The position numbers and the translations under genes are program-made. The notes under the pieces were generated by a model. The model made no database searches. It was not told where the DNA came from and worked only from the letters and a program-made list of their open reading frames with translations. Source: a bacterium (GTDB lineage Bacteria; UBA8248). From it: DNA of 64,000 nucleotides. The stretch spans positions 1,056,001-1,120,000 of the forward strand of contig CBDATS010000004.1 in assembly GCA_965200245.1 (NCBI GenBank), in the 5' to 3' direction. Below are positions 23,814 through 25,500 of this stretch, in pieces. Every line of letters starts with the position of its first letter. The first letter of the stretch is position 1.

Positions 23814-24986
23814 TTAATCCTGTTTAATGTCAACCGGCTCAATATCTTCAAGTTCAATAACCGAACCTCTACCAATTTTTTTACGGACCCCCTTAATTCG
23901 GATCGGCAAATTCCACATAGGACGGACAATATCGTTCATCATACCTTCCGGCACTTTGACTTTGTGTTCTTTTCCTTCCAGATCGATCACTTTGATTTTG
24001 TCATCGTTTTTTTTGGTCGAGTCTGCATATAGCAACCTACCTTGTATGATAGTAGATTCAGTAGCAGTTTGATGTATAGTGGTACTGGCGGTACCCGGTC
24101 CAGTGAGTATTGAAAGTTCCGATACAGGTTTGGTCATCTCTGCAATGCGCTCAACCCCATTTCTGATAGTTGTAAAACCCACTTGACGAATACGTTTTCC
24201 ATCTGGCGCGATTTTCTTCGCGAGGGAAAGAAAGTTTCTCCGATACGTGGGGTCAGGGATTCGCTCCTGTATTTCTGTAACCTTCAAGTTGTTTGCAAAC
24301 TCCACCAAGTCCATGAATTCATCAATAATTTCGTTTGTCTTCGACGTTTTGGGATGAGGTATTCCTGGAAGAGATGGCTGGCCCGTCGAGCGACCCAGTC
24401 TCATTGTCACCGAAAAGCTAGCAGCCCTTGGGGTAGAAAGAAACAACCTATATTCTGTAAGGTTTTTCGGAGGCGGGCCACTTTCTCGAAATGGTCGGTT
24501 GTTTTTGCGTTCGACTATACGCTGAATCAGCTTCGACGAGTCGGTCACGCGGCTCAGAAATTCATCAGATGTTACAACCCCAAAGCCCACGTCTTGGCCG
24601 GATAGGCTCAACTGCATCTCATTTTCTTCCAATTCGATGCCTCGCAATCCAAGGTGTCTTTTGAAATGGATTTGTTCCAGGAGATTGCGCAGTTCCTCTG
24701 CGATTTCTTCAGGAGGATTTTGAGCGAGGGCCTTTGCCACGATTTGCTCGGCCTGGCGAGTTTTATTGCAATCCAACGCCAGAGTCCCGGCGCTACGATG
24801 GAGTATCGAGTATGTCGGCTCGATTATTGCGTGGTTTTTGTCCAATTCAGCGATGGCCCTGAGTTCAAGATCCAATGCTTTTTCAAAAAAATCCATCGAT
24901 TGTTCTCTGTCGCCTTGTACTCGCGCGGTGAGAGCAAGTTCCGCAAATTCCATCGCTTCATTATGAAAATCCCTAAGATCATTCAT
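23814..24986 (-). CDS. Hypothetical protein, TPR-like N-terminus plus unknown C-terminal domains (390 aa)
   Basis: Intact AT-rich ORF; ATG at 24986 overlaps the upstream stop by 8 nt; helical HNEAMEFAE...EPTYSILHRSAGTLALDC. Confidence 0.8.
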   Translation of the reverse strand: MNDLRDFHNEAMEFAELALTARVQGDREQSMDFFEKALDLELRAIAELDKNHAIIEPTYSILHRSAGTLALDCNKTRQAEQIVAKALAQNPPEEIAEELRNLLEQIHFKRHLGLRGIELEENEMQLSLSGQDVGFGVVTSDEFLSRVTDSSKLIQRIVERKNNRPFRESGPPPKNLTEYRLFLSTPRAASFSVTMRLGRSTGQPSLPGIPHPKTSKTNEIIDEFMDLVEFANNLKVTEIQERIPDPTYRRNFLSLAKKIAPDGKRIRQVGFTTIRNGVERIAEMTKPVSELSILTGPGTASTTIHQTATESTIIQGRLLYADSTKKNDDKIKVIDLEGKEHKVKVPEGMMNDIVRPMWNLPIRIKGVRKKIGRGSVIELEDIEPVDIKQD

Positions 24987-25500
24987 TTTCCTGAACCTCG
25001 GCGAGAGGCTTGCCAAATTCGACTACGATTGCGAAAGCTGGAAGAGTGTTGGCGGAACGGGTCGTCTGCTTCAGCTTTTGTCGGACTCTGTTTTTAACAT
25101 CACTTTCGGTTCCTTTTCGGATGCCCGAGATTTCCAGCCTCGCCTTCTCTTGGAAGGGTTTGGTTGATTTGTCCCCCACCCAATAATCAAAACCTGTTCC
25201 TTTACGCGAACGTTCAAGCACCGTATAGCCAGTCGCCTTCTTCGTCAGTAAAACTGCAATACCCATCGCACCATGTTCGGTAGCTACTTCAGGGTCATTC
25301 CATGTTCTCCGGGACTGTTCGTTAACAGGCGGCCAATTTAGCTTGAAGATACTTTTCAGGAAACCCCTGACATGGAGTTGGACTCCTATATCATGTCCCT
25401 GTGATTCCAGACACACACCGGCAGCTTCTGCCAATGCAAGGCCGAATTTCGGTGAAATTGCGGGGTGAAAACCATTAACCAAGTCATTTAAGTTCAGCAT
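24979..25500 (-). CDS. Hypothetical protein, PD-(D/E)XK nuclease-like
   Basis: ATEHGA...GTGFDYW...RLEISG...KLKQ pattern resembles a restriction-endonuclease fold. Confidence 0.75.
   Translation of the reverse strand: MLNLNDLVNGFHPAISPKFGLALAEAAGVCLESQGHDIGVQLHVRGFLKSIFKLNWPPVNEQSRRTWNDPEVATEHGAMGIAVLLTKKATGYTVLERSRKGTGFDYWVGDKSTKPFQEKARLEISGIRKGTESDVKNRVRQKLKQTTRSANTLPAFAIVVEFGKPLAEVQENE

Follow-up and report, generated by a model that had tools for sequence, protein, structure and literature searches.

A mobile gene pair encoding a nuclease-like protein and a modular TPR-like partner: a candidate defence module in a bacterial defence island

A coupled gene pair in a low-GC block

The cassette described here lies in a 64,000-nucleotide stretch of bacterial DNA (positions 1,056,001 to 1,120,000 of contig CBDATS010000004.1, assembly GCA_965200245.1, GTDB lineage UBA8248), referred to as the window; coordinates are those of the window unless another sequence is named. 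It is composed of two genes on the minus strand, gene 1, which encodes a nuclease-like protein, and gene 2, which encodes a partner with a tetratricopeptide repeat (TPR)-like head, a middle domain and an OB-fold tail (Table 1). The original prediction, made from the letters alone, described an intact, AT-rich pair with an 8-nt overlap, and each of these features is present: both open reading frames (ORFs) are uninterrupted, and the block holding them has a lower GC content than the DNA on either side. The overlap (ATGAATGA) contains the start of gene 2 and the stop of gene 1. On the coding strand the junction reads ...GAAAATGAATGA..., in which the gene 2 ATG overlaps the gene 1 TGA by 8 nt, and a GAGG lies ~10 nt upstream of that ATG. 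As far as the sequence goes, this arrangement suggests translational coupling of the two genes. An alternative gene 2 start, a TTG at 25016, would give a protein of 400 residues; homologues begin at the position of the ATG.

Both genes are more than chance ORFs, since they have 801 (gene 1) and 963 (gene 2) relatives in a large protein collection and a ratio of nonsynonymous to synonymous substitution rates (dN/dS) of 0.13 each. Against the nearest intact copy (locus L001) the values are 0.129 (gene 1) and 0.127 (gene 2), and both genes are under purifying selection. The motifs quoted in the original prediction are found at ATEHGA 73–78, GFDYW 103–107, LEIS 122–125 and KLKQ 142–145 of gene 1, and as RAASFSV and IQGRLLYADS...IRIKG in gene 2, all on conserved columns.

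Promoter and terminator counts over 23300–26200 are at or near shuffle expectation, with nothing upstream of gene 1. A repeat search of 22900–26900 returned short imperfect two-copy matches only and no insertion scars, and no operator-like repeat or promoter stood out in either scan around the cassette. Metatranscriptome contigs (X6, X7) overlie patches of both genes, and one contig of 343 nt crosses the junction (24915–25257); DNA carry-over is possible in these contigs because a dead region, 25903–26775, is covered too, at a depth of 2–6.

Gene 1 has a restriction-endonuclease-like fold with a variant active site

The gene 1 protein starts with an α/β extension of ~65 residues bearing conserved C30, H36 and W56, followed by a PD-(D/E)xK-like core (residues ~68–173). 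Its relatives are called ‘hypothetical’ where they are named at all. No family in Pfam, NCBIfam or PADLOC matches at E ≤ 1, PHROGs yields only noise (E 0.26–0.28), and a profile of the family finds no chain among the PDB sequences at E ≤ 10. The predicted model (pLDDT 88, pTM 0.86) has the α–β–β–β–α–β core of the PD-(D/E)xK superfamily. A Foldseek search of the PDB gives nothing at E ≤ 0.001; its weak top rows are almost all PD-(D/E)xK proteins (CinB, the SPARDA nuclease, tRNA-splicing endonucleases, ACE1, MspJI and PA endonuclease), and restriction-endonuclease-like nucleases make up nearly all of the 50 structure matches listed. In the ESM Atlas, gene 1 falls among ‘hypothetical’ clusters only, plus one Hjc-bearing cluster at 0.78. 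A search for longer proteins containing gene 1 gave two matches, one an over-extended ORF and the other a read-through fusion.

Conservation was read from an alignment of 27 sequences with identities down to 31%. No variation is seen at W56, T74, A78, D105, R121, L122, E123, G126, R138, K142 or F162; H36, S125 and Q145 are each replaced in one of the 27 sequences, and position 75 is Glu or Asp. In the predicted model the conserved residues occupy textbook positions in the order of secondary-structure elements (Table 1). The canonical D...(D/E)-x-K motif is not present: where Lys would be expected, 26 of 27 sequences have Ser125. The PD-(D/E)XK-like arrangement with Ser for Lys, as first proposed, is thus borne out at the level of the fold by the model, the structure matches and the conserved residues. 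The predicted metal-binding acids are intact and the canonical Lys is consistently Ser, which makes this a variant of the canonical site. K142, on the following helix, may stand in for the absent Lys; catalytic residues that have migrated to a neighbouring helix are known in the PD-(D/E)xK superfamily.

Gene 2 combines a TPR-like head with an OB-fold tail

Relatives of gene 2 carry the names ‘hypothetical’ or ‘tetratricopeptide repeat protein’. At E ≤ 1, Pfam, NCBIfam and PADLOC give no match to gene 2 beyond a sub-threshold TPR, and PHROGs noise only. The repeat model TPR_2 scores 15.1 bits (E 0.026) against a cut-off of 27, and relatives reach 23.7 bits at best; by sequence, the family profile finds only a designed TPR in the PDB. 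In the AlphaFold2 model (pLDDT 79.7), the head is predicted to form five helices in a TPR-like arrangement and carries the conserved motif EPTxSVLHRSA. The tail is predicted to form a five-stranded closed β-barrel that matches known OB domains and resembles SSB, RPA and RMI. Between them, the middle domain has the conserved motifs PRAASF and APDG..IRQVGFT; searched as part of the whole gene 2 model it has no match in Foldseek or VIA, and its ESM Atlas matches reach at most 0.82, which is uninformative. At the level of folds, the proposed architecture is supported for the OB-fold tail and, more loosely, for the head, which is TPR-like; as a description of the conserved partner it is too broad, because only the head of ~110 residues is conserved, the middle and OB parts being absent in 44 of the 80 loci surveyed below. 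Complex prediction with gene 1 and the head (residues 1–118), each given as an alignment, scored 0.00, 0.58 and 0.00 in runs without control folds and is evidence neither way.

The head follows gene 1 in every genome locus

A scan for gene 1 across 185,579 species genomes, one genome per species, found 346 relatives, and the 80 best loci were retained. The two genes co-occur in all 80: gene 1 is directly followed by a homologue of the head, the sole part of gene 2 present beside every gene 1 homologue. Projected onto the loci, the two genes overlap by 4 nt in 58 cases, and 78 of the loci have an overlap or a gap not exceeding 8 nt. The partner is long (at least 360 residues) in 35 loci, consists of the head alone or the head with another short C terminus (100–215 residues) in 44, and is an interrupted long form in one (L002). 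There is no third conserved gene: the commonest neighbour cluster beyond the pair occurs in 8 of the 80 loci. The pair thus has the adjacent, co-directional, coupled and co-inherited small genes of type II toxin–antitoxin systems.

The same pairing is seen in IMG/VR. Among 20 loci there, with gene 1 at 33–61% identity, the head follows gene 1 in 17 of the 17 that have downstream DNA; gene 2 is full-length in 16, one combines the head with a different C terminus, and three are cut at the contig end. These distant pairs retain the long architecture at 32–49% identity. Metagenome loci with upstream DNA place gene 1 before a long gene 2 in three of three cases. In a tree built by quick search from 93 gene 1 sequences, long forms occupy the deep branches and short forms have arisen repeatedly (well-supported branches force at least 2 changes; parsimony gives 12). 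One genome (G062) carries both a long-form partner copy (380-residue frame) and a short-form copy (126-residue frame), at C1:1651728–1652078 and C1:536516–536851.

A distant homologue of gene 1 (33% identity) is found in a genome of the same family as the source (L084, 1474–2240), with the signature TE...D...LEISG...K..Q kept. It is followed, with a 4-nt overlap, by a helical ORF of 75 residues that tblastn does not recognise as a head. The profiles may thus capture only part of the superfamily.

The head is a module found with several C termini

At E ≤ 1e-30 a profile of the head alone matches 308 cluster representatives, and at E ≤ 1e-10 it matches 2151. Among the best 150, which were inspected, most proteins are 360–417 or 114–168 residues long. 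Others join the head to an OB fold without the middle domain (P0249, P0251), carry tandem heads (P0244, P0380), or run into a different domain. In P0352, residues 118–206 are an HU/IHF domain (E 3e-12 to IHF/HU); in P0364, residues 175–508 are an NB-ARC NTPase (E 9e-16 to AfsR and 1e-12 to Apaf-1); both are known from the protein alone. Metagenome scans found nothing for the NB-ARC variant and only ordinary long-form pairs with the HU variant. At locus L004, the head is followed by a complete HigA-type HTH (residues 114–200; E 1.8e-16 to 6f8h and ~1e-7 to HigA antitoxins), with Pfam HTH_3 just under its cut-off.

Gene 1 is fused in frame to the head in three cases: L076, from a Calothrix isolate assembly, P0242 and P0323; in P0323 the gene 1 part is 46% identical and precedes the head and the middle domain. 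Sequencing error is possible for the two metagenomic ones; such fusions argue for a physical or functional complex. On a Hymenobacter radiodurans plasmid (L106, 5456–6361), right after a gene 1 homologue, the head is fused to a membrane-anchored domain annotated as ‘sugar transferase’, which may be a chance fusion at an insertion site.

The cassette is horizontally mobile

DNA similarity to two related copies ends at the edges of the cassette. In blastn against 22001–28000, L001 (83% identity) matches 23830–25574 only and L002 (80%) matches 23822–25547 only, and the flanks are unrelated; the unit that has moved comprises both genes and a short upstream segment (Table 1). The source genome holds one copy. 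A gene 1 match occurs in 4 of 60 other related genomes, that is, in 3 of 22 of the same genus (two close and one at 31% identity) and in one elsewhere in the family. The head is present in 32 of 401 sampled cyanobacterial genomes, in up to three copies per genome. The gene 1 tree does not follow taxonomy, and gene 1 is found on 4 of 72,556 plasmids. Similarity ending at the cassette edges, low GC content, patchy distribution in the genus, disagreement between tree and taxonomy and presence on plasmids establish the cassette as horizontally mobile.

Two copies are decaying. In L002 (10001–11691 of its sequence; a related genome, gene 1 76% identical), an otherwise intact gene 2 has one in-frame stop at codon 53, and gene 1 is the sole sequence with Pro at position 125 (S125P) and also has S149A at an otherwise invariant position. 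In L037, gene 1 has two stops beside an intact gene 2 of 371 residues. Both are single cases; they fit a toxin–antitoxin logic in which the partner is lost only after the effector has been disabled and orphan partners persist.

Genomic context

Around the cassette lie genes of PADLOC type, namely PDC-S01, a SIR2–HerA pair, remnants of a type III restriction–modification system and PDC-S45 (Table 1), so the placement in a defence island is upheld. The statement that most neighbours are broken is overstated: Res is truncated and Mod is split, whereas SIR2–HerA, PDC-S01, the SNF2 helicase and PDC-S45 are full-length. The Res and Mod remnants represent a decayed type III system, with the apparently intact SIR2–HerA pair inserted between them. 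Within the island and beside the cassette, a low-GC ORF of 280 residues has no Pfam or PADLOC match; it could be a further defence gene that lacks a name. A short island of GC ~0.61 (26201–26609) holds stop-interrupted ORF fragments resembling the N terminus of a nuclease–helicase, a remnant also covered by metatranscriptome contigs.

Table 1 Features of the cassette, predicted elements of gene 1 and neighbouring genes in the window
Feature	Position	Strand	Remarks
Gene 1	24979–25500	−	173 residues, P0001; intact, uninterrupted ORF
Gene 2	23814–24986 (from ATG)	−	390 residues, P0002; intact ORF; head, middle domain and OB tail
Gene 2 head	24651–24986	−	residues 1–112; five helices, TPR-like
Gene 2 middle domain	24087–24650	−	residues ~113–300; α/β
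Gene 2 OB-fold tail	23826–24065	−	residues ~308–387
8-nt overlap	24979–24986	−	gene 2 start and gene 1 stop
Transferable unit	23822–25574	−	both genes and ~50–75 bp upstream of gene 1; from blastn
Low-GC block holding the cassette	~23400–26200		GC 0.41–0.50, against at least 0.6 on both sides
Gene 1 helix	residues 70–90		E75
Gene 1 strand	residues 104–109		D105
Gene 1 strand	residues 120–127		E123-x-S125
Gene 1 helix	residues 132–145		R138, K142, Q145
PDC-S01 ATPase (AAA_14 + DUF4143)	22074–23198	+	PADLOC E 5.5e-95; flanks island; full-length match
Stop-interrupted ORF fragments	26201–26609	+	remnant; GC ~0.61
Low-GC ORF	26751–27593	−	280 residues
Type III Res fragment	27839–29383	−	matches positions 491–985 of 989; N-terminal half missing
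HerA + SIR2	29289–32287	−	PADLOC E 9e-177 (HerA) and 3e-167 (SIR2); full-length matches
HicB-like ORF	32588–33061
Type III Mod, split in two ORFs	33648–35486 and 33086–33730	−	positions 35–451 and 443–620 of 621; DUF4391 N terminus
SNF2 helicase	36071–38677		full-length match
PDC-S45, trypsin-like peptidase	39553–40356	−	PADLOC E 3.3e-86; flanks island; full-length match

The neighbourhoods of the 80 loci were surveyed by clustering the 307 ORFs of at least 180 residues within 3 kb, scanning 225 representatives against PADLOC at E ≤ 1e-15 and passing the labels to cluster members; two generic matches, a DNA polymerase I in L024 (‘RTasPolA’) and a TPR protein in L074, were left out of the tally. 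PADLOC-positive genes occur in 29 of the 80 loci (45 of 307 ORFs), an association seen without control loci and not a measured enrichment. They include type I, IIG and III restriction–modification genes, a UG/Abi reverse transcriptase, a CBASS cyclase with E2, AbiL/AriA-like ATPases, IetA, Hma, GmrSD-like proteins and several PDC candidates. Three further loci have weak PADLOC matches only and 48 have none. A Pfam pass on the neighbours of L001–L026 found, in L013, an AbiV HEPN gene directly upstream; L005 has an IS1595 transposase and L026 a phage capsid gene.

In IMG/VR the pair lies at most 6 kb from a contig end in 15 of the 20 contigs. Of 138 listed ORFs around these pairs, 71 were scanned against PHROGs. 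An integrase lies just downstream of gene 2 in four loci (L098, L101, L103, L104), and a repressor or regulator upstream of the pair in three (L090, L098, L104). Such an integrase–repressor setting is the usual place of prophage cargo.

Comparison with known systems

The claim that the pair matches no named system holds for PADLOC, Pfam, NCBIfam and PHROGs, and is limited by the date of PADLOC-DB v2.0.0 (2023), which leaves later systems uncovered. A full-text literature search found no description of the pair, within the limit that a nameless family is not reliably searchable in such text.

The closest layout is that of toxin-first type II systems such as HigBA and MqsRA. As in these, two small co-directional genes overlap at stop and start with the putative toxin first, the distribution is scattered and mobile, and the partner consists of a toxin-side domain followed by a nucleic-acid-binding domain, L004 even carrying a HigA-type HTH after the head. 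In contrast to HigBA and MqsRA, the putative toxin has a restriction-endonuclease fold rather than that of RelE/ParE, the head of the partner is TPR-like without a family match, and the usual C terminus of the partner is an unknown domain with an OB fold. HTH (HigA-type) and HU/IHF domains are each found in one relative only (L004 and P0352); in their place, gene 2 of the window carries an OB fold.

Shedu SduA, HamA of Hachiman, DREN of SPARDA and ACE1 are single-effector PD-(D/E)xK defence nucleases with variable sensing parts. The pair resembles them in having a small effector of restriction-endonuclease fold with interchangeable sensing modules, in defence islands, and SPARDA, ACE1 and Hachiman chains are among the weak structure matches of gene 1. 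It differs in lacking a PADLOC sequence match, in having its putative sensor as a separate protein with a TPR-like head, and in the Ser for Lys. CdiA-CT/CdiI likewise joins a toxin of PD-(D/E)xK fold to an immunity protein, but our cassette has no delivery domain or contact-dependent inhibition context, and its partner is unrelated and modular. Nor is gene 1 related in sequence to the archaeal Holliday-junction resolvase Hjc or nucleases of the lambda-exonuclease type (no Pfam family at E ≤ 1; no PDB chain by profile at E ≤ 10), from which it also differs by Ser for Lys, an extra N-terminal domain and an obligate partner gene. P0364, in which the head runs into an NB-ARC NTPase, recalls the Avs-like STAND systems and suggests that the head is able to connect the nuclease with a sensor NTPase; gene 2 of the window has no NTPase, and P0364 is known from the protein alone.

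Proposed function and alternatives

We infer that the cassette is a mobile two-gene defence module, akin to toxin–antitoxin and abortive-infection systems, in which a nuclease effector is joined to an adaptor–sensor partner; we regard this as having an even chance of being right. Gene 1 would be a small metal-dependent nuclease of restriction-endonuclease fold, with an atypical site formed by the acidic residue at 75, D105, E123 and Ser at the Lys position. The TPR-like head of gene 2 would bind this nuclease and restrain it, and the C-terminal part (unknown domain and OB fold) would sense or tether invader nucleic acid, upon which the nuclease would be released or directed. In relatives, the C-terminal part is missing, or a HigA-type HTH, an HU/IHF domain or an NB-ARC NTPase takes its place. 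Nuclease activity, physical binding, the direction of inhibition, the trigger and the phenotype of the module are all what we infer here, and are to be read as predictions. A more far-reaching proposal, which we hold tentatively and with clearly less confidence, is that the head of ~110 residues would be a portable coupling domain dedicated to one nuclease family, in which a PD-(D/E)xK effector is wired to interchangeable sensors (unknown domain with OB fold, OB fold alone, HU/IHF, HigA-type HTH or NB-ARC STAND NTPase) or acts bare. The pair would then represent a new and widespread family of modular immune nucleases, in which an exchange of the partner's C terminus changes the trigger to which the nuclease responds.

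Several observations weigh against a defence function. Gene 1 occurs in none of 50,697 cultured-phage records; 51 of the 80 loci have no PADLOC-positive neighbour; and the Pfam pass on the neighbours of L001–L026 (122 representatives) returned mostly ordinary metabolic genes. Both proteins are unusually conserved for fast-evolving conflict genes, identity across phyla exceeding 50% in the 80 best-match loci that were retained. The NB-ARC, HU and tandem-head variants, for their part, are seen without genomic context, so that their pairing with gene 1 is unverified.

The cassette might be a plain selfish type II addiction module, with gene 1 a nuclease toxin and gene 2 a labile antitoxin autoregulating the operon, which is maintained selfishly or makes mobile DNA more stable and plays no part in phage defence. 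The toxin-first order (as in higBA and mqsRA) with overlaps of 4–8 nt, the one relative with the head fused to a complete HigA-type HTH, S125P alongside the gene 2 nonsense codon in L002, the orphan partner beside a dead gene 1 in L037, the many solitary insertions among metabolic genes and the presence on plasmids and prophage-like contigs all agree with this. However, a partner of 390 residues with an OB fold, or one with an NB-ARC NTPase, is far more elaborate than an autoregulatory antitoxin requires, stable in-frame fusions are ill-suited to a labile-antitoxin mechanism, and defence genes are frequently associated with the pair, which leaves us considering it unlikely. We put at a similarly low level a two-subunit DNA-processing enzyme in which gene 2 targets or activates the nuclease, its OB fold bringing gene 1 to single-stranded or branched DNA during recombination, repair or replication of mobile elements, for instance as a resolvase or exonuclease. 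Lambda-type exonucleases, Hjc resolvases and RecB-like nucleases are among the structure matches of gene 1, the OB tail is similar to SSB, RPA and RMI, the pair in L090 lies near RecE-like and Erf-like genes, and high conservation with natural fusions would fit an obligate enzyme complex. Yet the OB and middle parts have been lost repeatedly and are absent from 44 of the 80 loci, and are thus not essential to the core activity; the distribution is patchy (3 of 22 genomes in the genus, 32 of 401 cyanobacterial genomes), the flanks vary, and cargo genes, rather than core recombination genes, typically lie between an integrase and a repressor.

Least probable of all, and in our view doubtful, is that gene 1 is not a DNA nuclease, being instead an inactive binder with a nuclease fold or a metal-independent RNA endonuclease of the tRNA-splicing type. 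The Ser in place of the canonical Lys speaks for it. Against it, D105, E123 (with Glu or Asp at 75), K142 and R138 vary little or not at all in sequences down to 31% identity, which argues for a working metal site in gene 1. Splicing endonucleases use a Tyr-His-Lys triad, and gene 1 has no invariant His between Y106 and K142 to complete one.

Significance

A nuclease effector with a regulatory partner, found in islands and prophages, is a familiar kind of system. Its particulars appear from sequence comparison to be absent from the libraries searched (with PADLOC-DB of 2023): both protein families, an active site with Ser for Lys, and the proposed role of the head as a dedicated coupler. If the proposed defence module is real, it would add to the catalogue of bacterial conflict systems an unannotated, phylogenetically broad two-gene family, comprising a compact nuclease with an unusual Ser-for-Lys active site and a small adaptor domain that couples it to exchangeable nucleic-acid sensors, and it would give names to two protein families that annotation pipelines now label only as hypothetical.

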